Shown here: positions 11,346-57,333 of the stretch, in pieces
Numbering within the stretch: position 1 is the first letter of the stretch
Layout of the letters: every line of letters starts with the position of its first letter
DNA from: a bacterium
GTDB taxonomy: Bacteria; UBA8248
NCBI GenBank assembly: GCA_965204535.1
Contig: OZ241996.1
Coordinates: 1,440,001 to 1,504,000, forward strand
Reading direction: 5' to 3'
Length of the DNA: 64,000 bases
Position numbers and translations under genes: made by a program
Notes under the pieces: generated by a model
The model's database searches: none
Told to the model about the DNA's origin: nothing
The model's input: the letters and a program-made list of their open reading frames with translations, nothing else

Positions 11346-12428
11346 TTATTTCGGGTGGCGGTAGATCACGCTCTCGGGAAAATAATCCTTCCAGCCGAAC
11401 CAGAACGCGAGCGTCGTGGACAGCTGATTCAACCTCGCGCCCGCAAGCGGCCCGTCCACGGCCAGGCCGGTCAGGCGCTGCCAGCGCGATCCCGTTTTCC
11501 TGTCCTTCATGAACCTGCACGCTGCGGCGCCCTTGGCCCCGCTCTCCGTGATGAGTTCGAACTCGAGCACCTCGCCCTTCAGGACGCGGTCGAAAACGAC
11601 GCCCGTGCCCGCGCCCTCGCAATAGGTGACGAGAACGTCCCGGCCGGCGAAGCGGTCGTTCACGACGCCCGCGCGGTTCAAGTCGGCGAACGGGTAGACC
11701 TTGGCGACCTGCTCGCCCTTTTCTTTCGGGGAATCGAGCGCAAGAGCCACCAGCAGGGTTTTGGGATGTAAGCGATTATCGCGGTATTTCTCGGGGATCA
11801 CGCCGGTCTGAGCGCTGTAGTAATAGCCCTCATACGGATCGCGTGAAGGGCTTCGGAAGGCGCCCCCCATGCCTTTCAGCTTTTTTTTCAGCACCAGGGT
11901 GTCGGGATAGAGCTGCTTCCATTCCGAATAGCGCATCATGGCGGCAGGGAACGTCTTCAAGCGCTCCCCCTTGAGCGGTCCGATGAGGCCCTCCCCCGTC
12001 AGATGGCTCCAGAGCGTGTCCGTCTGGCGGTCGTACATGATGAGCACGTTTTTCCAGAGTTTTCCCGAAACGCCGAAGCTGAGCTTTTTGTCCCCCAGGT
12101 TACGGTCATACACGATGGCCGTGTAGCAAAGCGGTCACCAGGTGACGGAGACGGCGCTCCCGCCCACGACGTCGTTCACGATCTCGTGCGAACTGAGCAG
12201 GGGGACGGAATAGGCCCGCTTGTCGCCTTTGATGTTGATCCCGATGACCATCTCGTTCGGCTGCATGAAGCCCTCGGCATCTTTCACGCTCGCGTATTCG
12301 GGCGCATCGATGGCGGGAATGCCGTCTTTGGGCAGCAGGGTGCGGATCTCGGTTTCGGGACTCGCGCCCGATAGAGCCGGGAATGTGAGGATGACCAGGG
12401 CGAATAGAACGCTTTTCATATGCGGCAT
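11346..12428 (-). CDS. DUF3179-family putative selenoprotein with signal peptide (in-frame UGA at 12135-12137)
   Basis: The 97-aa and 255-aa ORFs are in frame and joined by TGG TGA CCG CTT TGC = W-U-P-L-C, where the family CxxC motif is expected; KDGIPAID and HEIVND motifs; downstream hairpin. Confidence 0.85.
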
Positions 12429-12458
12429 GAAAATGCTCTCCTCAGGCGGCCTGAGCCG

Positions 12459-13880
12459 TTAGCGTTTGAATCCATGAAGCACGGTGAAAAATGTCCGCTC
12501 CCCGCGGTTCGTCCCGCGCACGACCTGGCCCAGGACGTTTGCGCCCGCCGGGATTTTTTTGAGCAACGCCTCGATGTCTTCGAGTTTTTCGATCGAGACG
12601 CGGACGGGCGTTTTCCCGTTTCCGGGCAGGCGGTAGGTCAGTCCGCGTATCACCATGCCCTCGCGCAGGCCGTCATAATAGGCCCTGCTGCCCTCATCCA
12701 CGCTACTGATATAAACGCCGCTGTCGGTTGTCAGATTGTTTTTTTCCTTGAGCTCATCGGTCAGGTTCTCAAGCGCCACACCGTAGTTTTTCCTGGTCTC
12801 GGGCTCATCGACCTTGGTGTTCCCCGCCAGAGTGCTCCTCGATTCCGGTTCCGGCAGACGGACCAGCTTGATCTTGAATTTCTTTCTTTGGGCATCGCGC
12901 ACCACTTCCACGGACACGTCGTCTCCCGGCGGCGTCCAGCCCACGAGCCGTTGGAGGTGGGCCGTATCCACGACGCTCGTGCCGCCGAGGCGGACGATGA
13001 CGTCCCCCATGCGGATGCCCGCCCCCTCCGCCGGCCCGTCCTTGAGCAAAGCGCCCACGAGCGCGCCCCTGGCTTTCGGGAGCCCCAGCAGGTAGGCCAT
13101 GTCCTGGCTGACCGGCTGGATGGTCACGCCCAGATAGCCACGCGGGAAGTTCCCGCTCCGTCTCAGGTATTTGATGACGTCTTTCGCCATGTTGACGGGA
13201 ATTGCGAACCCGATGCCGCTGCCGGGCGCCGGGATCGCCGTGTTGATGCCGATGACCTGGCCGTCGATGTTCACCAGGGGCCCGCCGCTGTTGCCCCGGT
13301 TGATGGCGGCGTCCGTCTGGATGAAATACTCATAGCGCGCGACGCCGACGCCGCTGCGCCCGATGCCGCTCACCACGCCCACCGTGAACGTCCTCGTGAT
13401 GCCGAACGGATCGCCCACGGCTATCGACCACTGCCCCACCTTCACCTTGTCGGAGTCTCCGAACGTCGCCACCGGCAGCTTGCGGTGCGGCTCGATTTTG
13501 ATGAGCGCGAGATCGGTATAGCGATCCGTGCCGACGATTTTCGCCCAATGCGCGGACTCATCCCAAAGGCGCACGCGCAGCCTGCGCGTATTGCTGACCA
13601 CGTGGTTGTTCGTGAGGATATATCCCGCCGGGTCGATGATGACGCCCGAACCCGAAGAGAAAGTCGGTATGTTCGGGTGGGGGGATTGGGGCGCCTGTTG
13701 CGCCGCTCCCTTGATTCTCTCCCCTTGTATGCTCACGACGGTCGGCTTCACATTTTCCGCAATACCGGTGAACGCCGCCTCGATCTTCCGCATGTAGTCG
13801 ATGCCCGGGTTCGCCTGTGCAGACGCAGCGAAACTCATGGACAAAATCAAAAGCATCGAAAGGATGAAGCGAAGAATCAT
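12459..13880 (-). CDS. HtrA/DegP (Do family) serine endoprotease with PDZ domains
   Basis: GSGVI, TNNHVV, DLALIK, QTDAAINRGNSGGPL motifs; signal peptide from MILRFILS. Confidence 0.93.
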   Translation of the reverse strand: MILRFILSMLLILSMSFAASAQANPGIDYMRKIEAAFTGIAENVKPTVVSIQGERIKGAAQQAPQSPHPNIPTFSSGSGVIIDPAGYILTNNHVVSNTRRLRVRLWDESAHWAKIVGTDRYTDLALIKIEPHRKLPVATFGDSDKVKVGQWSIAVGDPFGITRTFTVGVVSGIGRSGVGVARYEYFIQTDAAINRGNSGGPLVNIDGQVIGINTAIPAPGSGIGFAIPVNMAKDVIKYLRRSGNFPRGYLGVTIQPVSQDMAYLLGLPKARGALVGALLKDGPAEGAGIRMGDVIVRLGGTSVVDTAHLQRLVGWTPPGDDVSVEVVRDAQRKKFKIKLVRLPEPESRSTLAGNTKVDEPETRKNYGVALENLTDELKEKNNLTTDSGVYISSVDEGSRAYYDGLREGMVIRGLTYRLPGNGKTPVRVSIEKLEDIEALLKKIPAGANVLGQVVRGTNRGERTFFTVLHGFKR

Positions 13881-13982
13881 GGAACCCCCACCATTTTGTT
13901 TCACCAGCGGCTTGTTATCCTGCAAGATTATACAGGGATGCCCGGTCTTTGTAAGCGCAAGAAGATATATGCTTCCCTTTTT

Positions 13983-14186
13983 GGCTGTTGGAAAAAGCCC
14001 TCCTCGGTCGGAATTGACGACCGCCGTCATTCTGGGCGTCATTGCCACTCCTGTTGTAGGGGTCGCATACATGCGACCCGGCTTTTTTCGCCGCCCGTCA
14101 TGGGCCGCATATATGCGGCCCCTACACAAACCGTCGCCTCCCGAGTCGCGTCAAACCCTCGTTCATCAGGATTTTATCAACACCCC
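13983..14186. mobile_element. MITE enclosing a REP doublet (family 2)
   Basis: ggctgttggaaaaa ... ttttatcaacacccc ends; REPs at 14056 and 14102-14125 identical to the 11178 and 11225 copies. Confidence 0.75.
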
Positions 14187-14225
14187 ACCAGACAGTAGTA
14201 TCCTCATAACTCACGTGCACATAAC

Positions 14226-14684
14226 TCACTTAACCTCAAGTATCACCTCAAGTTCCACGGGCGCTCCCAGGGGCAGTTCCGCCACGCCCACCGCCACTCT
14301 GGCGTGCTTGCCCTTGTCTCCAAAAATCTCGGCGGCCAGATTGGACGCTCCGTTCACGACGAGGGGCTGGGCGGTGAAATCCGGCGCAACGGCCACGTAG
14401 CCGCTCATGCGCACGATCCTCTCCACGCGCTCCAGATCGCCCAGGGCCGCTTTCGCCTGCGCGATGGCGTTCAGGAAACAGAGCGCCGCGCATTCCTGGC
14501 CCTGCTCGACCGTGACGTCGAGCGGCACTTTTCCCTCATGAATCATTTTGCCGTCCCTTATCGGGATCTGGCCCGAGATGAACATCAAGGACCCGGAGAT
14601 GACGTATGGCACATAGGCCCCGACCGGCGCGGGCGCATCGGGCAGTTCGATTCCCAGTTCGTTCATTCGCTCGGCGACGCTCAT
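14226..14684 (-). CDS. RidA/YjgF family protein
   Basis: PVGAYVP, ISGQIP, NGAS, GKHAR.AVGVAELP motifs. Confidence 0.9.
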   Translation of the reverse strand: MSVAERMNELGIELPDAPAPVGAYVPYVISGSLMFISGQIPIRDGKMIHEGKVPLDVTVEQGQECAALCFLNAIAQAKAALGDLERVERIVRMSGYVAVAPDFTAQPLVVNGASNLAAEIFGDKGKHARVAVGVAELPLGAPVELEVILEVK

Positions 14685-15304
14685 TTCAGCTCTCCCCTCA
14701 TCGAGATGGTTTTGATTTTTTCGAATTCCTCGGGCGTGTTCGCGTTCAGAAAAGAGACCCCTTCGGCGTCCCACTCTCTCCAGACCGCCTCTTCCACACG
14801 CCTCACGCTCACGTGTTCGTGAAACCCTATCATCTTAAGACGCCCCCTCGAAATCGACTCCTCGATGTGGGGCGCGCAATCCTTTCCGTAGAGCGCGCAA
14901 AGCGGCTCGGGGTAGTCGTCCTTCACCGGAATTACGACGTCCCAGTCCTCCACCAAAGAGGCGAGGCCGCGGATGAGGGCGGGTTGCAAGAGCGGCATGT
15001 CGCAGCCCGCCACGAAGACGTGCGAGCACCTTGCTCTCACGACAGCCGTGTGGAGGCCGCCCAGCGAGTCGTTGCCGGGGTGAATGTCGCCCACCACGGC
15101 GAGACCCATTCGCTCGTATCCTTCTTTCTCGTTCGCCACGACGAACACTTCTTCGAACATCCCGCCCAAAGTGTCCGCGATGCGCCTGATGACGGGTATT
15201 CCGCCAATCTCCATCATGGATTTGTCCTGGCCCATCCGGCGGCTTCGGCCGCCCGCCAGGATGGCGGCGGAAAACGGCAGCCTGGGCGTTGATTCTGTGT
15301 TCAT
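14681..15304 (-). CDS. mobA: Molybdenum cofactor guanylyltransferase
   Basis: ILAGGRSRRMGQDK, CDMP, EPLCALY, NANTPEE motifs. Confidence 0.92.
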   Translation of the reverse strand: MNTESTPRLPFSAAILAGGRSRRMGQDKSMMEIGGIPVIRRIADTLGGMFEEVFVVANEKEGYERMGLAVVGDIHPGNDSLGGLHTAVVRARCSHVFVAGCDMPLLQPALIRGLASLVEDWDVVIPVKDDYPEPLCALYGKDCAPHIEESISRGRLKMIGFHEHVSVRRVEEAVWREWDAEGVSFLNANTPEEFEKIKTISMRGELK

Positions 15305-15347
15305 GCGGGGCGCTCCGGGAGGAGGCGATGAGCCGGAAACAATTGAT

Positions 15348-16619
15348 TCAGGAGTGCACCCGTTCGGGAGTGGCGGCTTCGACGTGCCCGGGTTTTTGAG
15401 AGGGCATCTCTTCCAGCAGGATCACCTGCACGCGGCTTCCGGCGGCGAGTTCGGTCTCATACTCGGGGAACACGACCAGGGCGTTCGCCCGCACCATGGA
15501 ATGCAGGATGTTGGAGCCCTGCGCCTCGATGGCCTGAACGGTCCATTCCTCCCCGTCGCGGTAGAGGACGGAGCGCACGTAGTGCCGCCGCTCGGGGGAT
15601 TTCGTGAGCGGGTGTAAGAGGCGCGCCTCCACGCTCGGGCGGAAGAGGTTCTCAAAACCCTGCATCTTGAGCAGCGACGGCCGTACGAACAGCTCGAAGC
15701 TCACCATGGTGGATACGGGGTTCCCCGGCAGGCCGAACACGGGCTTTCCGTTCAGCACGCCGAACGCCATCGGCTTGCCCGGCTTCATGCGCACGCGCCA
15801 GAAGCGCATGTCGTTTCCCAGCCCGCCCAGCGTGGATTTCACGAGATCGAAATCACCCACCGACACGCCGCCGCTGGTGATCAGGAGATCCGCGGCCAGG
15901 CCGTCGTTGATGTGGCGGGTCAGGTCTTCGGCGTTGTCCCGGGCGATGCCCAGGAGAACCGGTTCCCCGCCGGCTTCGAGCACCTGCGCGGCGAGAGCGT
16001 AGGAGTTGGAGTTGAATATCTGCCCCACGCCTGGGGCGTCGCCCAGATCGACGAGTTCCTCTCCCGTCGCGAGGATGGCCACCTTCGGTTTCTGGTACAC
16101 GTACACCCTCGCCCGGCCGATGTTCGCCAGCATTCCGGCGGAAGCGGGTCCCAGTCGGGCACCGCTTGAGAGAACCGTCTCGCCGGGCTGGACGTCTTCC
16201 CCTGCCAGACGGATGGCTTCTCCCTCGGGCACGGCGAGGAATATCTCTACCTCACCCTCAGAGATCCGCTCCGTCTCCTCGACGAGCACGACGGCGTCCG
16301 CCCCGTCGGGAATGGGCGCGCCCGTCATGATCTTGATGGCCCCGCCCGGGCCGAGGGTGCGGGTCGCCACGACGCCGGCCTGAATCTCCTCGACCACTTT
16401 CAGCGTCCTGGGCGTCTCCCGGCTCGCGCCCGCTACATCCTCCGCGCGCAGGGCGTAGCCGTCCATCGCCGAGTTGTTCCAGGGCGGAACGGGGCGTGAG
16501 GACCTCACATCCTCGGCCAGCACCCTGCCCGGACAATCGAGCAGACCCACCCGCTCGCGCCCCATCGGGTGAATCATCTCCAGTATCGAATTGCGAGCCT
16601 CTTCCACGCTGATCATCAT
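15348..16619 (-). CDS. moeA: Molybdopterin molybdotransferase
   Basis: SAMDGYA, IMTGAPIP, SGGVSVGDFD, KPGKP, GLPGNPVS motifs. Confidence 0.95.
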   Translation of the reverse strand: MMISVEEARNSILEMIHPMGRERVGLLDCPGRVLAEDVRSSRPVPPWNNSAMDGYALRAEDVAGASRETPRTLKVVEEIQAGVVATRTLGPGGAIKIMTGAPIPDGADAVVLVEETERISEGEVEIFLAVPEGEAIRLAGEDVQPGETVLSSGARLGPASAGMLANIGRARVYVYQKPKVAILATGEELVDLGDAPGVGQIFNSNSYALAAQVLEAGGEPVLLGIARDNAEDLTRHINDGLAADLLITSGGVSVGDFDLVKSTLGGLGNDMRFWRVRMKPGKPMAFGVLNGKPVFGLPGNPVSTMVSFELFVRPSLLKMQGFENLFRPSVEARLLHPLTKSPERRHYVRSVLYRDGEEWTVQAIEAQGSNILHSMVRANALVVFPEYETELAAGSRVQVILLEEMPSQKPGHVEAATPERVHS

Positions 16620-16762
16620 CGACTCCGAATGCTGTGAAAAGCGACCGGCCCCATCCCGGCCGCCGCTATTATAACCGACGCCGAGGCGGGAACAAACGGA
16701 GGACGGCTTCTGCAAGAGAACCCGGGTTTGCGAATTTCCGGCGTTTTCTTTAGAAATGCCCT

Positions 16763-17206
16763 ATGCCAAAGGACCAGTACAGCTACAAGAGTGAAATGCG
16801 CGTGCGCTTCGGCGAAACCGACTTGCAAGGCGTGGTGTTCAACGCCAACTACCTCCTCTACGTCGACACCGCGCAGATGGACTACCTGCGCACCATCGGC
16901 GTCCCCTACTTCGACATGCTCGAGCGCGGGTATGACATCGTGATCGTCGACGCCTCCCTCCAGTTTCTCGCACCCGCCCGTTTCGACGAGGTGCTCCACG
17001 TCTACGCGCGGATTTACGACATCGGGAACTCGAGCATCAGGATGGACTATGAGATCTACGAGGCGGAATCGGAGCGCTTCGTCGCCAGGTCGCAGACGGC
17101 CTATGTGATCATCGACAGGGAGTCGCAAAAACCCGTCCGCGTGCCTCCCTACATCCGCCGCGCCGTCAGGGAATTCGAGTCGAGAGAAGACATCGAAGAA
17201 ACGTAA
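16763..17206 (+). CDS. Acyl-CoA thioesterase (4HBT/YbgC hot-dog family)
   Basis: VRFGETDLQGVVFNANY motif. Confidence 0.9.
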   Translation: MPKDQYSYKSEMRVRFGETDLQGVVFNANYLLYVDTAQMDYLRTIGVPYFDMLERGYDIVIVDASLQFLAPARFDEVLHVYARIYDIGNSSIRMDYEIYEAESERFVARSQTAYVIIDRESQKPVRVPPYIRRAVREFESREDIEET

Positions 17207-17471
17207 ACACAGGCGATTTCATGCTTCATGCGCCCCGGATAATGCAATTACCGCCAATTTCCGGCCATCGGCGAAAATCGCATCGTTGAGAAGCGCTCTG
17301 CTTCATGGTAAAATTCAGGAGTTCATAATCGCTGTATTGCAAGATCGCTTTTCGGGAAGTTCCGGCTTTGACGAGAGTGGGGGGCATTCGTCATCTTCAA
17401 ACCATAAACCAGTCGTGGGATCATTTTCGCTGTAGCAGGCACAGCATTCTGCAGCATAAACAGGAGGGAAT

Positions 17472-18476
17472 ATGATGAAATCGCTGAAACCATCGAAACG
17501 CGCTATTCCGTTCCTCACCCTTGCGCTGAGTTTGCTTATCGTCGTTGCGCTGGGGACCACACAGGCTCTTGCTGCATGGAAGCCCACGCGCCCGATTGAG
17601 TTCGTCATCATGGCGGGCAAGGGCGGCGGCGCGGACCGCATCGCCCGCCTCATGCAGAAGATCGTCACCCAGAACAAGTGGTCGCCCCAACCCCTGGTTC
17701 CGATCAACAAGAAAGGCGGCTCGGGCGCCGAGGCGATGCTCTATCTGCTGTCGAAAAAAGGGAACCCGCACGTCATCCTCGTGACGCTGAACAGCTTCTT
17801 CACCACCCCTGCCCTGCGGAAGCTGCCGGTGAACTACACGAAGCTCACGCCCGTCTACCGCCTGGCCATGGACACGTTCCTGCTCTGGGTCAACACGAAA
17901 TCGGGAATCAAGAACATGGATGATTTCGTGAAGGCCGTGAAAGCCAAGAAAGGGAAGTGGACGATGGGCGGCACGGGCAAGATGCAGGAGGACCAGCTCG
18001 TCACGAACATGCTCATGCAGGCCTACGGCCTCAAGGGCATGATCACCTACGTGCCCTTCCGGGGCGGCGGCACCGTGGCGAAAAACCTCGCCGGCGGCCA
18101 CGTCGATTCGACGGTGAACAACCCCTCCGAGGGTCTGCCGCACTATCCCGGCAAGATGAGGCCGATCGCCGCGCTGACGCCCGAGCGCATCCCTGCGTTC
18201 AAGGATGTCCCCACGTTCAAGGAACTGGGCCAGCCGCAGCTCGTGTACTTCATGCAGCGCAGCATCAACGCGCCCGGCGGCATCCCCAAGGACGCCCTGG
18301 CATGGTATACGAACCTGTTCAACAAGCTGTGCAATTCCAAGGAGTGGAAGGACTATACGTCCAAGAAGGCGCTGAACCGCGCCTGCCTGAGCGGCGCGCC
18401 GCTGGGCAAGTTCTTCGCCGATGAGGACGTGAAGCACAAGAAGCTGCTCATGGGCATGGGATTGCTGAAGAATTAG
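17472..18476 (+). CDS. tctC: Tripartite tricarboxylate transporter substrate-binding protein (TctC/Bug)
   Basis: Signal peptide, PTRPIEF...GGGAD, NKKGGSG, VPFRGGG, DVPTFKELG. Confidence 0.9.
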   Translation: MMKSLKPSKRAIPFLTLALSLLIVVALGTTQALAAWKPTRPIEFVIMAGKGGGADRIARLMQKIVTQNKWSPQPLVPINKKGGSGAEAMLYLLSKKGNPHVILVTLNSFFTTPALRKLPVNYTKLTPVYRLAMDTFLLWVNTKSGIKNMDDFVKAVKAKKGKWTMGGTGKMQEDQLVTNMLMQAYGLKGMITYVPFRGGGTVAKNLAGGHVDSTVNNPSEGLPHYPGKMRPIAALTPERIPAFKDVPTFKELGQPQLVYFMQRSINAPGGIPKDALAWYTNLFNKLCNSKEWKDYTSKKALNRACLSGAPLGKFFADEDVKHKKLLMGMGLLKN

Positions 18477-18495
18477 TTTGCGGAGAAGAATCCAG

Positions 18496-18987
18496 ATGCA
18501 ACGGGCGGATAGGATAGTCGCCATCGGGCTGATTTTCGTGTCCCTCGGCGTCGCCTGGAAAGCTACGGAACTACCCGTCGGCATTCTTCCCAAAGAAGGG
18601 CCAGGAGGGGGTTTCCTCCCCTTCTGGCTTTCTTTGGGAATCGCCGCCGTGGCGCTGATGGTATTGATCCAGTCGCTGCTTTCTTCCCGCCGGGACAAAT
18701 CCGATACGGCCAGCGCGGGAGTCTTCATGAGCCGGGAAGGCTTGCGCGACCTGATGCGCGTCGGCCTGCCCGGAATGATCATGATCCTCCTGATCGGCGT
18801 TATCTCGGTCTATTTCTCGGCGGCTCTTTTCATTTTTTATTGCCTGTTCATGGTCGGGGGGCACAACCTCAAGACGAGCCTCGGCGTGTCGATAGGCGTG
18901 CCCGTCGTGGTGTATTACATTTTCGAGAAATTCTTGATCATCCCCCTGCCGAAGGGGTATGCGGAGTTTTTGTTTTACTGGAATTGA
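18496..18987 (+). CDS. tctB: Tripartite tricarboxylate transporter small membrane subunit
   Basis: Four TM segments, GPG..P and C-terminal IPLP.G; lies between tctC and tctA. Confidence 0.85.
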   Translation: MQRADRIVAIGLIFVSLGVAWKATELPVGILPKEGPGGGFLPFWLSLGIAAVALMVLIQSLLSSRRDKSDTASAGVFMSREGLRDLMRVGLPGMIMILLIGVISVYFSAALFIFYCLFMVGGHNLKTSLGVSIGVPVVVYYIFEKFLIIPLPKGYAEFLFYWN

Positions 18988-19067
18988 TGATTTCACCGTT
19001 TCCTTTGCCATCCGTCAGGAAATCTCCGTAATCGTGGGGGCAGGGTTTGTCCTAAGGGCCGGGTAAA

Positions 19068-20594: not shown

Positions 20595-20608
20595 TCGGGT
20601 GAGGTTTT

Positions 20609-47509: not shown

Positions 47510-47857
47510 CTACACTCCCGACGCCTCTGGTTTTCGAGCCACTTCCTTCAGGTCCTGCTGAGTAAAGAGGGTCTTGCAGACCTTGTCCATGTGCGCCTTG
47601 AGCGGCGGATAGGTCGTCAGTTCGTAACTTTTCACGTCCACACTGAACGGCAGATTGCTCTCATGAAACATGGTCCAGAGGCGATCGATCTGCTTTTCTT
47701 TGATACCGCCTCGCAGTGCCAGGTCGACGTCCGAATTCGGGCGATAGTCGCCCGTGGCGCGTGAACCGAACAGTTCGACCGAGGCGATCTCCTCGGCGTA
47801 GAGCGCCAGAATTTGTTTCAAAACCGCGAGCTGGCGGTCCGAGAGTCCGTGGTTCAT
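47510..47857 (-). CDS. Minimal nucleotidyltransferase (MNT) antitoxin
   Basis: LFGSRA.G...SDVDL motif; 4-bp overlap with the HEPN gene. Confidence 0.88.
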   Translation of the reverse strand: MNHGLSDRQLAVLKQILALYAEEIASVELFGSRATGDYRPNSDVDLALRGGIKEKQIDRLWTMFHESNLPFSVDVKSYELTTYPPLKAHMDKVCKTLFTQQDLKEVARKPEASGV

Positions 47858-48279
47858 GGCCGCTCCCCGCTTTTATCAAGAAACAGGATGTGCAATGCGT
47901 CGAAGGCGCGAAGGTAGTCTTTTCTGATCTCTTCGATGACGGCTTCGAACCTTTTGAGGTCATAATTGTGCGACATCTTGTTGCGCGCATCGAGTGCGTC
48001 CATCCACGTTTGTCCATCCCCCAGCAGATTCGCTTCGAAGGCTTTCCGTATGACGGCTCTGGGCGTTACCTGCTCAAAAGCGACATTCTCACTCTCCAGA
48101 TAGTCCTTCATGAGGTTCCAGGCAAGTTCGGTCGTATATTCAAACCGCTGGATGATCCCTTCTTTTTCAAGCTGGCTCGGTTCCCTTTCGTCCATCATTT
48201 CGATGGCCTCGCGCAGCAGGGAAAATGCGCGCTTGTAATTCTCGAATCGGTATCGCCAGCGCGGGGTGTCGTCGTTCAC
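47854..48279 (-). CDS. HEPN toxin (HI0074-type nucleotidyltransferase substrate-binding family)
   Basis: IQRFEYT.ELAW and RNKMSH (RX4H) motifs. Confidence 0.9.
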   Translation of the reverse strand: MNDDTPRWRYRFENYKRAFSLLREAIEMMDEREPSQLEKEGIIQRFEYTTELAWNLMKDYLESENVAFEQVTPRAVIRKAFEANLLGDGQTWMDALDARNKMSHNYDLKRFEAVIEEIRKDYLRAFDALHILFLDKSGERP

Positions 48280-48479
48280 CGGGCTTTCCTCTCTCTTGAG
48301 CGTTCGTGGAGCCTAGACGTATATCCAGCTTGTGCGCACAACGAAACAACATGCTTCACGGGATGGTGCGCGTCAAGTATATTACTTTTCCGCGTTTCGC
48401 TATTTCATGACGCGAGGACTCCTGCCGACGTTCATTGAACAGGGGCCGTCCGCGTCCAAAACCTGGAGTTTATTCACCC

Positions 48480-49109
48480 ATGATATATGAAGTTCGCGCT
48501 TACACGTTCCCCTCAGGATTCGCTCAAGAAGGCGTGGAGGATTTCGGCAGAATCATCGAGAAACGAGCCGCGATATCCCCTTTAATCGGGTTTTTCATCT
48601 CCGCGATCGGGGGGCTGAACCGGATTCTCCACATCTGGGAGTACGAGAACTCCGCCCACCGGGAACAAGCGCGCGCCGAAGCCCTCGCCCAGCCGTGGTG
48701 GCCGCCGCTCCAGGTGGATAAGATCCTCTACCAGCAAACGCGCATCATGCGGGCGGCGCCGTTTTGTCCCAAGCCGCGGACGGGAGCGATGGGAAGCGTA
48801 TACGAGATCAGGAGCGACGTGATGCTCACGGGCAAGATGCGGGACATCAGCGCGGCGTGGGAGAAGAATCTGCCCGCACGGGAGCGCCTCTCGCCCCTGG
48901 CGGCGGCGTTCGCCAACCCGGCGGGAGAGTTCGAATCCGGCATCCTGAACGAGTTTCTGCACATCTGGCCCTACCGGGACATGAACCACTGGGCCGAAGT
49001 CCAACGGCAGGCCGAGGAACTTCCCGACTGGGGAAAAAGTTACAGGCCTTATCTTCGGAGCGAGACTTCTGAAATCTGGTATCCGGTGGCGTATTCGCCC
49101 ATGAAATAG
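48480..49109 (+). CDS. NIPSNAP family protein (two domains)
   Basis: IYE.R.Y ... G.LN..LHIW.Y repeated twice; ends YSPMK. Confidence 0.85.
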   Translation: MIYEVRAYTFPSGFAQEGVEDFGRIIEKRAAISPLIGFFISAIGGLNRILHIWEYENSAHREQARAEALAQPWWPPLQVDKILYQQTRIMRAAPFCPKPRTGAMGSVYEIRSDVMLTGKMRDISAAWEKNLPARERLSPLAAAFANPAGEFESGILNEFLHIWPYRDMNHWAEVQRQAEELPDWGKSYRPYLRSETSEIWYPVAYSPMK

Positions 49110-49149
49110 CGGGGACCGCATTCGCGACCCCCGCCGGGTGATGGATAAA

Positions 49150-49224
49150 TGGAGCGGGAAACGGGATTTGAACCCGCGACCCCAACGTTGGCAACGTTGT
49201 GCTCTACCACTGAGCTATTCCCGC
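49150..49224 (-). tRNA. tRNA-Gly(GCC)
   Basis: Minus strand GCGGGAATAGCTCAGTGGTAGAGCA-CAACG-TTGCCAA-CGTTG-GGGTCGCGGGTTCAAATCCCGTTTCCCGCTCCA; cloverleaf with encoded CCA. Confidence 0.97.
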
Positions 49225-49347
49225 TTACAACCCCAAAAAGTTTACCCGACTCGCATCAAGAGTCAAGGGCTTCAGCGATTTGTCCTGAGTCATCCCGGTT
49301 ATGCGGGGTTGTTGAAAAGGCCCCTCGTCAACCGGGTTCGGCGCGTA

Positions 49348-49517
49348 GGGGCTGTTGAAAAGCCGGAGAGGGAAAATTAGCTTGTGTGTAGGGGTCGCAT
49401 ATATGCGACCCTGATTTTTTTCACCACCACAAGGGCCGCATATATGCGGCCCCTACAAAAACCGTCCCTTCCCAAGCCGCGTCAAACCCTCGTTAATCCG
49501 GACTTTCTCAACACCCC
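49348..49517. mobile_element. MITE enclosing a REP doublet (family 2), with an extra orphan left end at 49305
   Basis: ggggctgttgaaaa ... tttctcaacacccc; body colinear with 11138-11310; REPs at 49388 and 49433-49456. Confidence 0.8.
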
Positions 49518-50257
49518 CTTCGGGCATGAATCCGCACCGAAACCACAGGACGAAACGGAGCGTGGCCGGAAATTTCCACTTCTCGAAACCCGGCGCCCGC
49601 CAGAAGAGACTCCCATTCGGCCTCCTCGCAAACGCCGCCGAGCGAGGCGTTCCACGCCTGGGGGTCCTGGGCGATCTCGACCGGCAGTTCGCCCTCGCGT
49701 ATCAACTCACGAGCCACGAGGCGCCCGCCCGGCTTCAGGATCCTGTGCACCTCGGCGAGCGCTTTTTGCTTATCTACCGTGAGGTTGAACGACGCGTTGG
49801 CCAGCACGATATCGGCGACCCCGTCCACCAGCGGGAGGCTCTCCATGTCCCCGGCCAATAGATGCAGGCACGCCCCGCTGCGAACTCCCGCAAACGCCTC
49901 GCGCGCGCGGTGAAGCATCTGGGGCGCGAAATCCACCGCGAACAGACTGGCGCCGGCCTCCAGCCTCTCGCTCACGAGGCGCGCGTCGAGTCCCGCGCCG
50001 CATCCGAGCTCCACGACCGTCCGCACACCTTTGAGATCGACCCCATCGAGCAGATACCCGCAACCGCAATAAGAAGACGAAACGCGCTCGGGCAGTCCGT
50101 CGATGAATCGGGCGGGATAGCCCGCACCCCGCGCCCTGCCCGCGCCGCCTTCGGGGAACGCATGCGCCTCGGCCAGATGGGCGTAGCGCTTTCTGACAAA
50201 GGATTTCACCTGCTGCTCCCACGCCCTCGGCTTCGCGCCTTGAACGGTGACGGGCAT
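49508..50257 (-). CDS. Class I SAM methyltransferase, arsenite methyltransferase (ArsM)-like
   Basis: YCGCG, VVELGCGAGLD, N.SFNL..DK, RILKPGG. Confidence 0.8.
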   Translation of the reverse strand: MPVTVQGAKPRAWEQQVKSFVRKRYAHLAEAHAFPEGGAGRARGAGYPARFIDGLPERVSSSYCGCGYLLDGVDLKGVRTVVELGCGAGLDARLVSERLEAGASLFAVDFAPQMLHRAREAFAGVRSGACLHLLAGDMESLPLVDGVADIVLANASFNLTVDKQKALAEVHRILKPGGRLVARELIREGELPVEIAQDPQAWNASLGGVCEEAEWESLLAGAGFREVEISGHAPFRPVVSVRIHARRGC

Positions 50258-50264
50258 GGCCGGC

Positions 50265-51041
50265 CTAGTGGGGCATTTGGGCCGGGTTCCAGAATTCCCC
50301 GGTCCGCACCATCCTGGCGATTCGCTCGCCGTGAGGCATCCAGCCGTTCTCGTTCTTCTTCGCCTGCGCTTCGCAGTCGTACGCCACGCGCTTGGTCTCG
50401 ACGCGCCACTCGCCCCCGCCTTCGTATTCCACGACCGAATAGGCGGGGCGGTAGTCGCCGTCCCAGTTCATGCCCACCGCGGCGGTGCAGACGAGCGTCT
50501 GGCCGTCCACCTCGCGGACGTAGGGGCCATGCACGTGACCGAAGGCCATGATCTCCGCGTCCGTTCCCTTGATCTTCTCTTTCACCTCCTCGTCGGTGAA
50601 CCTCAGGGGAATCGCGTCCTCGATGTCGTCCGGCGTGGCGTGGAAGATATGGAAATCGTGCCCCTTCTCGGGCGTGATCGTCATCGACCACATGAGGCCG
50701 TCGAGATAGTCGATCTGCCCGGCGGAAAGTCGCTCGCGCGTCTTCTTCACCATCTCGTAGAGCCAGACGTGGTGTTCGCTCCTGGGCGGGTCGGTCTCGT
50801 CTTTTCGCTTCGATACCCACCAGTCGAGGTTTCCGGCGAGCACGTCCACGTCCTTGCGCCCCATAAAACGCTCCACCACCTCGGCGGGTTCGGGGCCGAG
50901 CATCACCAGATCGCCGATGACGATCTCGCGGTCCGCGTTTTCCTTCGCCACGGCCTCCTGCACGGCGTCCAGAGGCGCAAGCTGGGCGTGGATGTCGGAA
51001 TACAGAACAATCTTCACGTCATTACCCTTTCCAAGTATCAA
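50265..51041 (-). CDS. Metallophosphoesterase (YfcE-like)
   Basis: SDIH, GDLV, GN, FHA, GHVH motifs; alternative GTG start at 51017. Confidence 0.88.
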   Translation of the reverse strand: MILGKGNDVKIVLYSDIHAQLAPLDAVQEAVAKENADREIVIGDLVMLGPEPAEVVERFMGRKDVDVLAGNLDWWVSKRKDETDPPRSEHHVWLYEMVKKTRERLSAGQIDYLDGLMWSMTITPEKGHDFHIFHATPDDIEDAIPLRFTDEEVKEKIKGTDAEIMAFGHVHGPYVREVDGQTLVCTAAVGMNWDGDYRPAYSVVEYEGGGEWRVETKRVAYDCEAQAKKNENGWMPHGERIARMVRTGEFWNPAQMPH

Positions 51042-51103
51042 AAGAACGGGGCCGCCGCACCCGTTGGCGCGACGACCCCGAGCCTTTGCTTGATGAAGCC
51101 TTA

Positions 51104-52117
51104 TTAAATCTTGCCGGCCTTGGCGAGCGCCGCTTTCGTCACGCTCGTGTCGACGATGTCCTCATAGGAGGGAACCTTGCCCTTGATCTTGCCGAGCCGC
51201 TTCATGTAGTCCGCCGTGAAGGCGACCGATGCCTTGGGGATGCCGTTGTTCACGCCCCAGATTTTCTCCGCCACGAAGACGTCATACGTCTTCGACATGA
51301 TCTCGGGGTTTTTCTTATAGACGGGACGCACCCATTTATTCGCCGATTTGAGGTAGCCCGCCTTGTCCTTGTAGATGGAGCGGTTGGACTGCATCATCGC
51401 CATCGCGAAACGCACGTAGGCGTCCTTGTTCGAGTTGATCTTCGAAGACGACGCGATGAACGCCCCGTAGAAGAAGTTCGGCATGGCCTTCCACAGGTCC
51501 ATCAGCTTGTTGAAGCTGGGCTTTCTCTTCTTGACGACGAGAACCTGCTCGACGTGAATGACCACGGCGTCGGCCTTGCCCTTGAGCAGAAACGGAACGC
51601 GCGCCGGCGGCGGGGTCTTGATGTACTTCACGTCCTTGTCGGTCAGACCGGCGGTCGCCAGCACGGCGAGCGCGCCCAGGTGGCTGTATCCGCCGCGCCC
51701 CTCGATGCCGATGGTCTTGCCCTTGAGGTCGGCGGGTTTCTTCACCTGATCGTTCGCGGCCATCTGCGCCTCGTTCAGGAAGGCCATGGAGTGGAAGAAC
51801 TTCATGCCGCTGCCCTTGGTGATACCCACCATGGCGATCGGCGCCGGCACCCAGGCGGCGTCCAGGCCGCTCTTCTTGCTCGTGATCGCCCGGTGCGTGG
51901 CGACGCCGCCGCGGAAGAATTTGATCTCCACGTCGAGGCCGTGTTTCTTGAAGATATCGTTATCGAGCGCGTAGAACACCGGCAGGTGCACCATGACCGG
52001 CGGACGCACGGGCATGCCGAGCACTATCTTGTCGGCGGCGACGGACTGCGCCGGCGCACTCCACACCGCTGCGGCGAGCACGAACGCCGCGACCAATACC
52101 ATCCACGTCTTTTTCAT
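51104..52117 (-). CDS. ABC transporter substrate-binding protein (NitT/TauT/SsuA-like)
   Basis: Signal peptide, F.KHGLDVE, DLKGKTIG; operon context. Confidence 0.88.
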   Translation of the reverse strand: MKKTWMVLVAAFVLAAAVWSAPAQSVAADKIVLGMPVRPPVMVHLPVFYALDNDIFKKHGLDVEIKFFRGGVATHRAITSKKSGLDAAWVPAPIAMVGITKGSGMKFFHSMAFLNEAQMAANDQVKKPADLKGKTIGIEGRGGYSHLGALAVLATAGLTDKDVKYIKTPPPARVPFLLKGKADAVVIHVEQVLVVKKRKPSFNKLMDLWKAMPNFFYGAFIASSSKINSNKDAYVRFAMAMMQSNRSIYKDKAGYLKSANKWVRPVYKKNPEIMSKTYDVFVAEKIWGVNNGIPKASVAFTADYMKRLGKIKGKVPSYEDIVDTSVTKAALAKAGKI

Positions 52118-52170
52118 TTCGAACTCCTTAAAAAGAAAGGAAAATAGATTTTCCGGCAAGACGCCCGCCA

Positions 52171-52995
52171 TCAGGACTCCTGCCGAACCCTCCAGGATGA
52201 AAACTTCGTTTCACAGATGTTCACCACTTTCGTTAAAGCTATACCGACTACCATCAACAAGACAACAGGCGCGAGGCCCTTGTCCAGTTCCAGATCCGCA
52301 ATGTAGTCCTGGCTCAGTGCGCCCAGGCCCGAGATGCTCATCAGAAACTCGGCCACGACCATGCCCACCAGGGCGCGCCCGCACGCGAGTCCCAGTCCCG
52401 CGACGAGATAGGGGACCACGCTCGGGAAAATCAGGTCCCGCCAGCGCTGGCCCTCCGTGGAGCAGAACGAGCGCGTCACCTCGAGGAGCGAGAGATCCAC
52501 GTTCCGCACGCCGTGGTAGACGTTCACGATGATCGGCATGATGGCGAAGAAGACGACGATGGTCGTCTTGCCGACGAAGTCGACGCCAAGGACCATGGCT
52601 ATCGGGAACGCCAGCGCGACCACCGGCGTGGCGTAGAGGGCGAACACATAGGTGTCCACGGCGTACTCGAATATCTGGAAGCGCCCCATGAGAATCCCCA
52701 GCACGATGCCGAGGGGAATCGCGATGAGCAGGCCCGCCACCAGGATTTGAGAACTCTCATACGCGGCGGCTGTCATCTGGCCGCTGGCGATCAAATCCCA
52801 GAACGCAACGCATATGGCGCTCGGGTAGCTGAAAGTGACCGGGTCGATGTTCCCGGTCTGTCCCATCAGTTCCCACCCGCCGATGACAACGACGAGCGAT
52901 ATCAAGCGCACGTATACGGCGGGTTCCTTGATGCGCTCCCAGAACGCCTTCTCATCCCTCGATATGCCTGTTGCCGCCGGGGCGTCGGTAGCCAA
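52171..52995 (-). CDS. ABC transporter permease (NitT/TauT type)
   Basis: Six TM segments, EAA-like loop, VVAEF....GLG. Confidence 0.9.
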   Translation of the reverse strand: MATDAPAATGISRDEKAFWERIKEPAVYVRLISLVVVIGGWELMGQTGNIDPVTFSYPSAICVAFWDLIASGQMTAAAYESSQILVAGLLIAIPLGIVLGILMGRFQIFEYAVDTYVFALYATPVVALAFPIAMVLGVDFVGKTTIVVFFAIMPIIVNVYHGVRNVDLSLLEVTRSFCSTEGQRWRDLIFPSVVPYLVAGLGLACGRALVGMVVAEFLMSISGLGALSQDYIADLELDKGLAPVVLLMVVGIALTKVVNICETKFSSWRVRQES

Positions 52996-53008
52996 AGATG
53001 GATGCCTC

Positions 53009-53818
53009 CTATTCCAGGGCGAGTTCGGGGACGGGCTCGGGTTCCACCTCGGGGTTGCGCATCGCTTCCCAGAGGTAATGGCGCAGCGCCTGAAAGCGCT
53101 TGCCGCCCCTGATTTCCTCCAAGTCCCTGCCGCGGCCGAAGCCGGTTTCGAACTGAAAGCGTATTCTCCCCGGGCGCGGCGTCATCACCAGAACGCGGTC
53201 GCCGAGGAGGAGCGCCTCATCGATGCTGTGGGTGATGAAGATCATCGCCTTGGGCTCCGCCTCGTTGATGCGCAGCAACTCCTCCTGCAGGGTTTCGCGC
53301 GTCAGCGCATCGAGAGCGCCGAAGGGCTCATCCATGAGCAAAACGTCGGGCTGGGCGGCGAGCGCCCGCGCCAGGCCCGCTCGTTGCTGCATCCCGCCCG
53401 AAAGCTGGGAGGGGTAGTTCGCCTCGAAACCGCCCAGGCCCACCAGTTCCGTGTAGTGGCTCACGAGGCGGTCGATTTCGCCCTTCTCCCTGCCCTGTAT
53501 CCTGAGCGCGTAGCCGATGTTCTGATCCAGGCGTTTCCAGGGGAAGAGGCCGAAATTCTGGAACACCATGGCCATCTCGGGCCTCGGGCCGTCCACCGCC
53601 TCGCCCTTGAAGGAAACCTCGCCCCTCTCGCAGAGAATGAGCCCGTTCACGATGCGAAGAAGCGTCGTCTTCCCGCATCCGCTGGGGCCCAGGATCGTCA
53701 GAATCTCCTGCGTCTTCACGTCGATGTCGATGTCATCGAGCACATGCAGGGAGCCGAACCATTTCCCCACTCCCTGGAGGCGCAGCGTCGGATTCGTGCC
53801 GTTGTCGGATGAGGACAT
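53009..53818 (-). CDS. ABC transporter ATP-binding protein (NitT/TauT type)
   Basis: GPSGCGKT, LSGGMQQR, MDEPFGALD, ITHSIDEA. Confidence 0.93.
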   Translation of the reverse strand: MSSSDNGTNPTLRLQGVGKWFGSLHVLDDIDIDVKTQEILTILGPSGCGKTTLLRIVNGLILCERGEVSFKGEAVDGPRPEMAMVFQNFGLFPWKRLDQNIGYALRIQGREKGEIDRLVSHYTELVGLGGFEANYPSQLSGGMQQRAGLARALAAQPDVLLMDEPFGALDALTRETLQEELLRINEAEPKAMIFITHSIDEALLLGDRVLVMTPRPGRIRFQFETGFGRGRDLEEIRGGKRFQALRHYLWEAMRNPEVEPEPVPELALE

Positions 53819-54024
53819 GGATACGAGGGTTCCTGTCGAGAAAGCGGCCCGATGCGCTTCGTTCGGATGGCGTAACGATTCACCGCGCGAATGAGGGCCA
53901 CAGGTCAGACGTATCATGAAAAACGCGACGCCCGCTCACCATCCGGAAGCGATTCAATAGTTTTGCGAGACTAGCATTCTTTAGATGAAGCGGCAAATAT
54001 GGGGTTTTGCACCCGCCCCCTGCC

Positions 54025-54417
54025 CTACTCCTCACCGATGACGGCGATGGCCTGTATCTCGACCATCATCTCGGGCTTTGCGAAACCCGCCGCCGTGATC
54101 AACGCGCTGCCCGGAAATCCATCGGGAAAATACTGCTTTCTGAGCTCGACGAACCTGTCCCCGTTCGCCCCGTCGAGGATGAACACCGTCATCGTCACGA
54201 TGTCCTGCAGCTTCCCGCCCGCACGCTCCAGGGTGCGCTCTATCTGGCGAAACGTGGCGTGCACCTGCGCGTCGAAATCCCCCGCCAGCACGTTCCCCCG
54301 CTCATCGCGCCACATCCCCACGCCGGCCAGCCAGACGTGCTCGCCGCCTTTCGTCTTGACCGCAGGCGAAAAAGAACGATCCTGCTGCCAGGTGCCCTTG
54401 AAATACTCTCGCGTCAT
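54025..54417 (-). CDS. RidA/YjgF family protein
   Basis: FSPAV, Q....F..I...L..AG, VEIQAIA. Confidence 0.85.
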   Translation of the reverse strand: MTREYFKGTWQQDRSFSPAVKTKGGEHVWLAGVGMWRDERGNVLAGDFDAQVHATFRQIERTLERAGGKLQDIVTMTVFILDGANGDRFVELRKQYFPDGFPGSALITAAGFAKPEMMVEIQAIAVIGEE

Positions 54418-55643
54418 TTTGTCTCCTTCCTCGGGTTATCGGATATCTGCTTTTTGCCTCTTAATTGCGCTGACGTTGAAACGGCCAGCCAACTCATGAT
54501 CGCAAAACAAAAATAGCTCGCATCCAGATTTACCTGCCCGGCGAGCCAGCCGCCCAGCAAGGGAGCGAGAAAACTCAAGCCGTGGCAGGTATAGATAAAG
54601 CCGACGGATGAAGCCAGAATATCTTTTTCCGAGAAATCCGCCGCCGCGGTGAGGATAATCGGGCTTACGAACCCGACGACGCCGGTCAATGCGGACAGAA
54701 TATAAAAACCCGTTTGCCATCCCATGAACGGCAGGGCGAGAACGAAGACCCCCAGCAGCGTCATCGGCCAGAACAGGGCCGCTCTCGCGCCCCAGCGGTT
54801 ATACAGGATGCCCATCAGCGGTTTGGCCAACATGCCGAAACCGAAATGGAGCGACACGGCCACGCCGATTTGCGCCGTGGTCATCCCCAGCTTCGAGGTC
54901 GCGAGTAAGGGGAGAAACCCTATCATCCCCTTGGTGCACATGCTGCGCAAGGTGTAGGTCGCCGCCAGCCACACCGTGTTCCTGTTCTCTACGACCCGCT
55001 TGATGATGGAGAAAACTTTCAATTCCGCCGCTTTCCCCGCCTCACGTTCGATCCCGCTCTTTCCCTCAACAAACCGTGCGTTCACCAGGGGGAGGAGCGC
55101 AATGGCCGGCGCCGCGCAGGCGCCGACCGCCGCGCGCCAGCCCGCCATCGCCGCCACGGCCGCCTGGGCCAGCGGAAGGATGCTGGTTCCCAGGTTGCCG
55201 CCCAGGCTGTGCCAAGAAATAGCGAATGCGCGGTCGCGCTCGAAGCGATTCGCCGCCAGGGCCGTTCCGCACGGGTGGTAGACGGAATTTCCCGCCCCCG
55301 CCAGAAACGCCAGGGCGCACATCGGCAAGAAGCGGCTCACCCACATCATCGCAATGAAAGACGCGGCGGAGAGGCCCATGCCCGCCAGGAGTATCAGCTT
55401 TCTTCTGCCTGTATTATCCGCCAGTATGGAGAGCGGGTATTGGAAGATCATCTGCCCCAGACTGAAAGTGCTGAGCAAAACCCCCACTTCGAAGGGTGAC
55501 AGGTCGAGATCCATGACGATGAGCGCAAGAACGGGAACGAGCATGTTGGAGAACCCGTCGCTCAACCCGTGGGTCAAGCCGATGACGCTCAGATCGAAAT
55601 AATCACCGAATCTCCAGGCAGGCTTTTCCACATGAGAGGTCAT
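54414..55643 (-). CDS. MFS transporter
   Basis: About 12 TM segments, LAD..GRR, GNSVYHP. Confidence 0.88.
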   Translation of the reverse strand: MTSHVEKPAWRFGDYFDLSVIGLTHGLSDGFSNMLVPVLALIVMDLDLSPFEVGVLLSTFSLGQMIFQYPLSILADNTGRRKLILLAGMGLSAASFIAMMWVSRFLPMCALAFLAGAGNSVYHPCGTALAANRFERDRAFAISWHSLGGNLGTSILPLAQAAVAAMAGWRAAVGACAAPAIALLPLVNARFVEGKSGIEREAGKAAELKVFSIIKRVVENRNTVWLAATYTLRSMCTKGMIGFLPLLATSKLGMTTAQIGVAVSLHFGFGMLAKPLMGILYNRWGARAALFWPMTLLGVFVLALPFMGWQTGFYILSALTGVVGFVSPIILTAAADFSEKDILASSVGFIYTCHGLSFLAPLLGGWLAGQVNLDASYFCFAIMSWLAVSTSAQLRGKKQISDNPRKETK

Positions 55644-56635
55644 TACGAAGCGGGCAGGTCTCGCCAGGCGGGAATGATTCCTCCGCCGTCGGCTTCCATG
55701 ACCGCGCGGCAAATCGCATGGCCGGCGGCCTCAATCGCCGCCGCCCCGACGACGTCGAGGGCCGCCTCGCGGTCCCCGCAAGAGAGGGCGAAGACCATGT
55801 CTCCATCCACAGTGGTGTAGGATGGGCGCACCGTTCGGATGAGTCCGTTCGCCGCCAACTGGGCGAGTTTGTGCGTTTCGGTTTTTGTGAGGCGGGCGTT
55901 CGTCGCCACGGCGACCAGCGTCGTATTCTCGGAGGTGTTGGAGAATCCCTCGAAAGGCCGCCCGTGGATCCTCAGGTGTTCTTCTGTATTCACGATTCCC
56001 TGCTCGGGGGCCATCGCTCTGGGACCTGCGACGGGTTTTCCCGTCCCCGGCTCGTACACGCCGCCAAAGGCGTTCACCGCGGCGATAGCGCCGACGACGC
56101 CGCCTCCCGGGAGTTTCACGCTCGCCGTGCCGAGGCCGCCCTTCATGGCGCGCTCCTGGCCGAAGAGTTTCCCGACCGTGGCGCCCGCTCCTCCGCCCAC
56201 GCTCCCCTGGGGACCTTCCTCGTTCGAGGCCGCCTCGCACGCGGCGCGCCCCATCGCGGCGTCCGGGCGGACGCGGCCGTCGCCGAAATGGAGATCGAAC
56301 AGCACGCCGGCGGCGACCGTGGGCACGTTGAAGAGGCCGGTAGGGAACCCCCTGCCCTGCTCCTCCAGAAAAGCCATGACGCCCTCGGCAGAAGCCAGGC
56401 CGAACGCGCTGCCTCCCGTCAGAACGATGGCGTCCACGCCTCCGACCAGGTGCTCGGCGCGCAGCGCATCCATCCCGCGCGTGGCCGTCGCCGTGCCGCG
56501 CAATTCGCACGCCCCGACCGTTCCGGGGGGGCAAAGCACCACGGAGACGCCCGTTCTCGCCGCCTCATCTTGCGCGTGGCCGAGATAAAAGCCCGGCACG
56601 TCGGTTATGCAGCCTTTGAGGTCAGAGAGTTTCAG
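55643..56635 (-). CDS. P1/DmpA (S58) family aminopeptidase, probable CTG start
   Basis: ITDVPGF..GH, GGSAFGL, G.VG.GAGA, NTTL..VATNA, DGD..F motifs. Confidence 0.88.
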   Translation of the reverse strand: MKLSDLKGCITDVPGFYLGHAQDEAARTGVSVVLCPPGTVGACELRGTATATRGMDALRAEHLVGGVDAIVLTGGSAFGLASAEGVMAFLEEQGRGFPTGLFNVPTVAAGVLFDLHFGDGRVRPDAAMGRAACEAASNEEGPQGSVGGGAGATVGKLFGQERAMKGGLGTASVKLPGGGVVGAIAAVNAFGGVYEPGTGKPVAGPRAMAPEQGIVNTEEHLRIHGRPFEGFSNTSENTTLVAVATNARLTKTETHKLAQLAANGLIRTVRPSYTTVDGDMVFALSCGDREAALDVVGAAAIEAAGHAICRAVMEADGGGIIPAWRDLPAS

Positions 56636-56676
56636 AGGGGAGACTCCTCGTTTCTTCGGGCATCCATCTACCCGCT

Positions 56677-57333
56677 CTAGTCCGCGACAGGAAGCTCGCC
56701 GGACGGGCGGCCGGGCAATTCGCCGGTCTCCAGGATGCTGTCGATGACGTATCTGTATTGTTCCGCAGGCACCGCGCCGACCATCACCGCTTTGTCGTTC
56801 ACGACGACGGAGGGAATGCCAGTGATCCCCAAATTCGTGGCCTCCATGTATTCCTTGGCGGCCTTTTCCTTCAAACCCCCGCTCTCGAGAGCGTCGCGGT
56901 ATCTGTCCATGTCCAGCCCGCTTTCCTCGGCCACGTCGCTCACCACTTCCGGGTCCGAGATGTTGCGGTTATCCGTGAAGAAGGCGGCCAGAAGGTTGTC
57001 GTGGAATTTCTCCCACTCCTCAGACCCCTGGAATCTCGCCGCCAGCCCGGCTTCCGCAGACGGCATCGAGCAGTTCGGAAACGCCTCCTCGCTCTCCCAC
57101 GGGGTGAAATCGCCGGAATCGGGCTGTGAGTTCGCATTATTCCAGTGGTTTCTGCGGTAATCGTTGAACACCGCCGTGGGGTCGGGCTCGGGCCGAAGCA
57201 TAAATACCCTGTACTGGATGTCTACTTTATCGCCGTATTCTTCCTTAATCTTCTTCAGGCGCACGGCCGAGTTGAAGCACCAGGGTCACAAAAAATCGCT
57301 GTAAACGGTGAATCGCACAGGGGCGTTATCCAT
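56677..57333 (-). CDS. DsbA/FrnE family putative selenoprotein (in-frame UGA at 57286-57288)
   Basis: ATG at 57333 after an AGGAG RBS gives MDNAPVRFTVYSDFL-U-PWCFNSAVRLKK, in frame with the 195-aa ORF; cis-Pro motif GITGIP. Confidence 0.9.

Follow-up and report, generated by a model that had tools for sequence, protein, structure and literature searches.

Two in-frame UGA codons in a UBA8248 bacterium are probably selenocysteine codons, each with its own predicted standard-type SECIS

The published consensus for the bacterial selenocysteine (Sec) insertion sequence (SECIS) has a G in the first two loop positions, followed by G or U, at a spacing of 16-37 nt from the UGA (PMC13188914). In E. 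coli, the upper SECIS stem begins 11 nt from the UGA (PMC8659212). Table 1 of PMC13188914 lists DUF3179 (PF11376, UxxC/T) and DsbA-like form 1 (PF01323, UxxC) among the selenoprotein families. In the 64,000-nt stretch analyzed here (the window; contig OZ241996.1, positions 1,440,001 to 1,504,000, from a bacterium of the UBA8248 lineage), a DUF3179 gene and a DsbA-like gene share these domains and the UxxC motif, with one Sec each, and no departure from the listed families is found as far as that paper describes them. A preliminary description of the window proposed that the hairpins following the two UGAs have identical geometry and represent a lineage-specific SECIS consensus. We find instead, with a probability of about 0.88, that each UGA is decoded as Sec via its own standard-type SECIS and that the shared geometry is a partly codon-driven coincidence. 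The two predicted elements are canonical SECIS in known selenoprotein families, and little about them is new.

The DUF3179-domain gene (window positions 11346..12428, minus strand; Pfam E 3e-90) encodes 360 residues when its in-frame TGA (12135..12137, minus strand) is read as Sec, which is then residue 98 in the sequence TW-U-PLC. Standard gene callers cut the gene into pieces of 94 and 255 residues. A search of 41 genomes returned 30 loci for each gene; at the DUF3179 site, 25 of these have TGA and 4 have Cys, and 1 does not align. Among 120 database homologues, the site is Cys in 74, another residue in 7, and not spanned in 39, most of which start downstream of the UGA; of the 81 that do cover the site, 74 thus carry Cys. 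RNA runs contain small shares (0.04-0.10) of the DUF3179 stretch as contigs of relatives, and the single contig that covers the UGA informs on neither transcription nor habitat.

The DsbA/FrnE-like gene (56677..57333, minus strand; Pfam DSBA, E 5e-24) has AAGGAG in front of its ATG and encodes 218 residues, with Sec at residue 16 in the sequence FL-U-PWC. Its TGA (57286..57288, minus strand) coincides with the first CxxC position in the DSBA model and is TGA in 30 of 30 loci, to class level, with no close Cys orthologue among them. In both genes, therefore, the UGA is positioned at the nucleophilic Cys of a CxxC motif, and it is kept in other Sec-using genomes (25 of 30 and 30 of 30 loci). The Pfam assignments bear out that the two families are unrelated.

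The genome carrying the window (G000; 4.56 Mb in two contigs, C1 and C2; completeness 95.7%, contamination 5.3%) encodes the full set of selA, selB, selC, and selD. The tRNA-Sec (75.9 bits), selA, selB, and selD are over cut-off, and selD has a single TGA of its own. The C-terminus of SelB, in which the C-terminal winged-helix region is encoded, resembles solved structures of the SECIS-binding domain (E 3e-24). The nearest named relative of SelB belongs to a metagenome-assembled genome named 'Nitrospinota bacterium' (92% identity), consistent with a likely membership of G000 in the UBA8248 'Nitrospinota' lineage.

Both in-frame UGAs are directly followed, within the coding region, by a predicted hairpin. 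In the DUF3179 gene, the hairpin (12102..12122, minus strand; +13..+33 after the UGA) pairs ACGG-C-CAU with AUG-A-CCGU, with one mismatch, and presents the loop CGUGU (12114-12110). In the DsbA-like gene, the hairpin (57253..57277, minus strand; +9..+33) consists of GGC/GCC plus CUUCA/UGAAG, as the preliminary description had it, and its apical GGC/GCC helix (57268-57258; pair probability 0.87-0.93 in G000) presents the loop CGUGC (57265-57261). The spacing reported earlier is confirmed on the minus strand: exactly 20 nt lie between the TGA and CGTGT or CGTGC, which is inside the range of 16-37 nt. Each loop has a G at position 2 followed by a U, in the DUF3179 case on condition that the CGUGU-loop fold forms; these bases are G+22 and U+23 (12113-12112 and 57264-57263, respectively). 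An Rfam search of the window matches neither hairpin.

In accordance with a role at the RNA level, the codons that encode the hairpins are conserved beyond the needs of the protein. Among the synonymous codons at +5..+10, 5 of 5 are invariant in 25 DUF3179 orthologues compared with 5 of 43 elsewhere in the gene, and codons +6..+10 do not change at all. The corresponding figures for 30 DsbA-like orthologues are 2 of 6 and 0 of 33. Because the orthologue rows are kin and not independent, these comparisons are within-gene contrasts without a p-value. The sequence CGTGT is kept in 25 of 25 DUF3179 orthologues and CGTGC in 26 of 30 DsbA-like orthologues. In the five most distant DsbA-like orthologues (one at order and four at class level), the helix slips by one base to give a 4-nt loop, GUUC in four and GUGC in one, and G+22 and U+23 are retained. 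Judged from sequence, Sec incorporation at both UGAs is likely, and in this respect the preliminary description stands: both are very likely Sec codons, each followed by a selected hairpin of the SECIS type.

The two elements share with the consensus bacterial SECIS (bSECIS; Zhang and Gladyshev 2005, via PMC13188914 Fig. 2A) the in-coding position 3' of the UGA, the 5-nt loop, a U directly after the G at loop position 2, and a spacing within the published range. With the SECIS of E. coli fdhF (G23/U24, bulged U17; PMC8659212), they share the loop GU, the presumed SelB contact, and an upper stem that starts ~12-15 nt past the UGA. The GU is located at +22/+23 here and at +20/+21 in fdhF, where G23/U24 are counted from the U of the UGA, and the DUF3179 hairpin has no 5' bulged U at the place equivalent to U17. 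From established bacterial Sec biology, the ribosome with the UGA in its A site would prevent approximately the first 11-12 nt from pairing, after which the upper stem would form, and SelB would bind the exposed G+22/U+23 and deliver Sec-tRNA. In both genes, codon +8 is a Val codon that begins with G+22 and U+23. Both genes may have built their hairpin around this pre-existing codon, which would thereby supply the GU of both loops, and the same SelB likely reads loops with the first G mostly at +18 to +24.

An alternative hairpin in the DUF3179 gene pairs UACACG with CGUGUA around the loop GCCAU at +16..+20 (12109..12125, minus strand), with the G at loop position 1; if it were the SECIS, the two genes would share no geometry. 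Several results weigh against the CGUGU-loop fold, or against a pronounced structure in either gene. The alternative is the minimum-energy fold of the free G000 RNA (0.93 compared with 0.06 for the CGUGU-loop fold) and also dominates with 8-11 nt blocked (0.70 at 11 nt); its helix pairs in 94% of cells across orthologues, and its 15-nt spacer is just under the published range. With an 11-nt block, 12 of 25 DUF3179 and 20 of 30 DsbA-like orthologues pass a G(G/U)-loop rule, which asks for a loop of no more than 8 nt that starts at +16..+26 and has G(G/U) in its first two positions. The stem-loops alone (-5.1 and -6.6 kcal/mol) are weaker than the bSECIS model threshold of -7.5 kcal/mol, as far as that model is described in PMC13188914, whereas the 50-nt segments reach -10.4 and -11.2 kcal/mol; these segments are no more stable than shuffles (z +0.44 and -0.42). 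Covariation analysis of both DUF3179 folds and the DsbA fold finds no compensatory change for either stem, and gives no signal in either direction because the core pairs never vary. Yet the stem of the alternative occupies +10..+15, extending into the 11 nt that lie below the upper stem in E. coli (PMC8659212), and its loop G is followed by C, not by G or U. When the first 12 nt are kept unpaired, the CGUGU-loop fold prevails in G000 (0.95 compared with 0.02); it wins in 18 of the 25 orthologues without constraint, in 6 with 9 nt blocked, and in 24 with 12 nt blocked. Moreover, a Thr-to-Ser change disrupts an inner pair of the alternative helix in 7 of 24 distinct rows. Outside that helix, and left unexplained by it, are the frozen letters U+27 (in TAT, used for a minority of Tyr, 32%) and C+30, both of them paired in the CGUGU-loop fold. 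The alternative hairpin is accordingly an unlikely SECIS, and the CGUGU-loop fold is strongly favoured for DUF3179. The 5-nt-loop stem described earlier is not the free-RNA minimum in G000 but is predicted to form once 12 nt are blocked; the dominance of the alternative fold, raised in the preliminary description as a possible objection, is confined in G000 to RNA that is free or less extensively blocked. It is very improbable, on the other hand, that the UGAs are recoded as Cys by a tRNA of the ReC type, or that the genes are split and the UGAs simply terminate translation. A tRNA-ReC that decodes UGA as Cys in a SECIS-dependent manner is reported in PMC13582414, and public databases annotate the gene pieces separately. 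However, only 1 of 12 tRNA-Sec model matches in G000 is over cut-off (anticodon UCA, then G-CCA), with no tRNA-ReC model search made; the genome has the full Sel machinery, both families are listed as selenoproteins in PMC13188914, and the frames are open on both sides of the UGA in all orthologues.

The proposal that a UGA-N20-CGUG(U/C) hairpin is the SECIS consensus of the lineage can draw on the exact match in two unrelated genes and its conservation among orthologues, on +22 being the commonest position of the first loop G (11 of the 57 Sec genes predicted in G000, described below), on a third gene, a DsbA paralogue at C1:699979, with N20-CGTG-G, and on the absence of the motif from gene-ending TGAs (0 cases). 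However, the motif fits only 2 of the 57 Sec genes. As a finder of the selenoproteome, the use suggested for it, N20-CGTG(T/C) returns 136 genome-wide sequence matches (no hairpin filter) that include 2 Sec genes, and the search rule was rejected; in the window, three of five matches, those besides the two genes, are antisense or out of frame. The known Sec genes expected to share the motif do not: the selD loop is GGA, located at +18, and no in-frame stop interrupts the single fdhA that is over cut-off. Because the motif is absent from selD and the other Sec genes, the comparison that the preliminary description had itself named as decisive goes against the consensus. In addition, a GU(U/G)C tetraloop takes over in the distant DsbA orthologues. 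A lineage consensus is therefore hardly credible, and the motif is at most one of several tolerated geometries. The opposite view, that the match reflects a shared Val codon and nothing else, is correct in part: of the 74 DUF3179 homologues with Cys, 71 also have Val at +8, but the third positions are fixed by selection. The CGTG(T/C) context holds 7.5% of the Val codons of G000 (5520/73304). The four class-level Cys loci of DUF3179 have Ala at +8. They suggested that the SECIS had brought about Val +8, an idea rejected on account of the 71 Val-bearing homologues just mentioned, which are closer and of the Cys form. Among cross-family Sec pairs, 32 of 1458, involving 34 of the 57 genes, have an identical (N)G(G/U) 4-mer at the same place, and the match between the two window genes exceeds chance only modestly. 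Its most fitting reading is that the two genes converged on a common solution; that they agree in the 20-nt spacing and the CGUG loop is likely a partly codon-driven coincidence and not a lineage signature.

The Sec genes of G000 were collected independently of N20-CGUG, by coding potential on either side of the TGA, paralogue alignments, and hairpin scans. Of 77 candidates listed, 62 were fetched and scanned and 15 were dropped unscanned (10 on context, 5 on the listing alone); the family scans compared 64 read-through proteins with NCBIfam and 19 with Pfam. Seven fetched candidates were then rejected: L029 and L030 (upstream gene ending before TraL), L075 (GrdG-type, TGA outside the domain), and L081-L084 (IS21 piece or no family). 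After rejections, there are 57 predicted Sec genes: AhpD-like (13), UGSC (8), DsbA-like (5), OsmC-like (5), deiodinase-like (3), PrdB-like (3), Prx-like (3), DUF442 (2), Grx (2), rhodanese (2), and one each of DUF3179, SelD, TlpA, Trx, GrdA, GrdB, CUAEP radical SAM, CoA-transferase alpha, DsrE, SelW, and ArsC. Five family searches reveal no missed TGA gene, with TGA in 7 of 13 AhpC-TSA, 2 of 11 rhodanese, 9 of 20 CMD, 0 of 2 MsrA, and 0 of 17 Fdh-alpha matches; families that lack a seed, or whose Sec lies close to the C-terminus, may nevertheless have escaped the count. The only formate dehydrogenase alpha subunit over cut-off (C1:1571503-1573539) is a Cys form despite the large selenoproteome. 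In PMC13326102, BSepDB gives 48-54 selenoprotein genes for three UBA8248 'Nitrospinota' genomes and a top count of 63 for the Olavius Delta 1 symbiont (Table 2). G000 is similarly selenoprotein-rich, although its 57 include three genes of two families outside the PMC13188914 table, and because the methods differ the counts are not directly comparable. As those entries indicate, a large selenoproteome in the UBA8248 lineage is already known, and 57 is no record.

The first loop G of the 57 hairpins is at +18 (9 genes), +19 (3), +20 (8), +21 (7), +22 (11), or +24 (5), elsewhere in 8, and absent in 6. Loops differ between families: AGGU at +17 in deiodinase-like genes, GUA or GUG at +20 in UGSC, GUA at +21 in OsmC, GGUC at +22 in AhpD, and GUU at +24 in Grx. 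The G(G/U)-loop rule, which is a narrowed form of the published consensus, passes 46 of the 57 Sec genes; for comparison, 58 of 600 Cys codons pass, as do 112 of 1218 gene-ending TGAs. Its recall is somewhat optimistic because the rule was set after the hairpins had been seen and SelW was admitted via a hairpin filter. A looser hairpin filter retained 44 of 50 Sec candidates, yet it was rejected as unspecific because 225 of 1225 gene-ending TGAs passed too, along with 384 of 1200 Cys codons. Ten identical nt, +15..+24, run across the predicted SECIS loops of deiodinase-like genes and a thioredoxin (C2 106094, C1 1156414, C2 1862440). This match is longer than that between the DUF3179 and DsbA-like genes, and both kinds are thioredoxin-fold proteins.

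Other features of the genome lie beside these genes. A Sec-OsmC gene is directly upstream of a Sec-DUF442 gene (C2:1923729-1924728), likely forming a two-selenoprotein operon. A glycine/sarcosine reductase-type cluster (C2:69891-74757) contains Sec-GrdA, a GrdG-like subunit, and Sec-GrdB, and three more PrdB-like Sec genes lie outside it. Sec-glutaredoxin is fused to a DinB-like domain at C1:586793-587545, and a UGSC selenoprotein domain is fused to a long C-terminal region without family match at C2:1791766-1793373. An MsrA gene without in-frame stop (C2:847503-847943) is directly downstream of selD. C1:183067-197837 and C1:200713-215427 are 99.6-99.9% identical to both ends of C2, which is either an assembly overlap or a duplicated mobile region, and no counted Sec gene is inside. 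In the window, a tRNA-Gly (GCC; 49150-49224, minus strand) adjoins two short genes at 47510-48279.

Two of the 57 genes, at C1:709102-709566 and C2:1923729-1924181, encode DUF442/Blh-like proteins. They share with the DUF442/Blh sulfur-transferase domain (PF04273, TIGR01244) the protein tyrosine phosphatase (PTP)-like domain and the H-C-x4-R loop but, unlike it, have TGA in place of the catalytic loop Cys. TGA stands at the Cys position in 30 of 30 loci, and 5 of 6 synonymous codons are frozen compared with 1 of 33 elsewhere. Of 26 database proteins, 24 end just before the TGA, and the G000 genes are cut at 95 residues in databases. The TGA form was found only within family f1 of the 41 genomes searched. 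The matching orthologue in G010 holds a second TGA.

A CoA-transferase-fold alpha subunit with TGA is encoded at C2:146859-147608, with its beta subunit at L285:8612-9364; a Cys-form paralogue of the alpha/beta pair is located at C2:682871-684462. Of 30 loci, 22 have TGA at the alpha site, 3 have Cys, and 5 that are more distant have His; in databases, 119 of 120 homologues have Cys there. Frozen codons are 5 of 6 compared with 5 of 50 elsewhere, and a rule-conforming hairpin follows the TGA in 22 of 22. We take Glu105 of IpdA to be catalytic, and the catalytic Glu of GctB presumably lies at the beta site. The structural model of the alpha subunit (pLDDT, the predicted local distance difference test, 92.7) matches GctA, IpdA, and AibA with template modelling (TM) scores of 0.85-0.89, suggesting the same fold as IpdAB and AibA/AibB, a CoA-transferase-fold hydrolase and decarboxylase (PDB 6CO6, 6COJ, 6CON, and 5MZW). 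In a gap-free alignment, the UGA column corresponds to E in 6CON and to A in 6COJ (the E105A mutant); the G000 alpha subunit would thus have Sec, or its homologues Cys, where IpdA has Glu. The beta subunit has no Glu at the classical place; two residues ahead of the conserved Gly, it carries Val in place of the Cys of AibB.

Table 1 of PMC13188914 includes neither family, nor is either mentioned in the passages of the deep-Sep main text that were covered, although other catalogues (the BSepDB family list, Deng et al. 2026, Haft and Tolstoy 2025) may name them. The NCBIfam seleno-models match neither, and a literature search gave no report of a DUF442 protein with selenocysteine and, among the matches listed, none of a CoA-transferase selenoprotein. 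On balance, we favour the view that the first is a PTP-fold DUF442 sulfur/selenium transferase with a Sec nucleophile and the second a CoA-transferase-fold enzyme with Sec at the position of IpdA Glu105 and without the classical beta Glu, a candidate non-redox selenoenzyme that may act on acyl-CoA thioesters via an acyl-selenoester.

The comparison across G000 is a clean negative, in that no fixed-spacing motif describes the SECIS set of this lineage. In turn, 57 natural hairpins served by one SelB map its tolerance, with the first loop G mostly at +18 to +24 and loops of 3-8 nt, and frozen synonymous codons provide a simple discriminator of true Sec codons. Two selenoprotein families emerge that databases truncate. 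If true, Sec as the acyl nucleophile of a CoA-transferase-fold enzyme would take selenium chemistry beyond redox catalysis.

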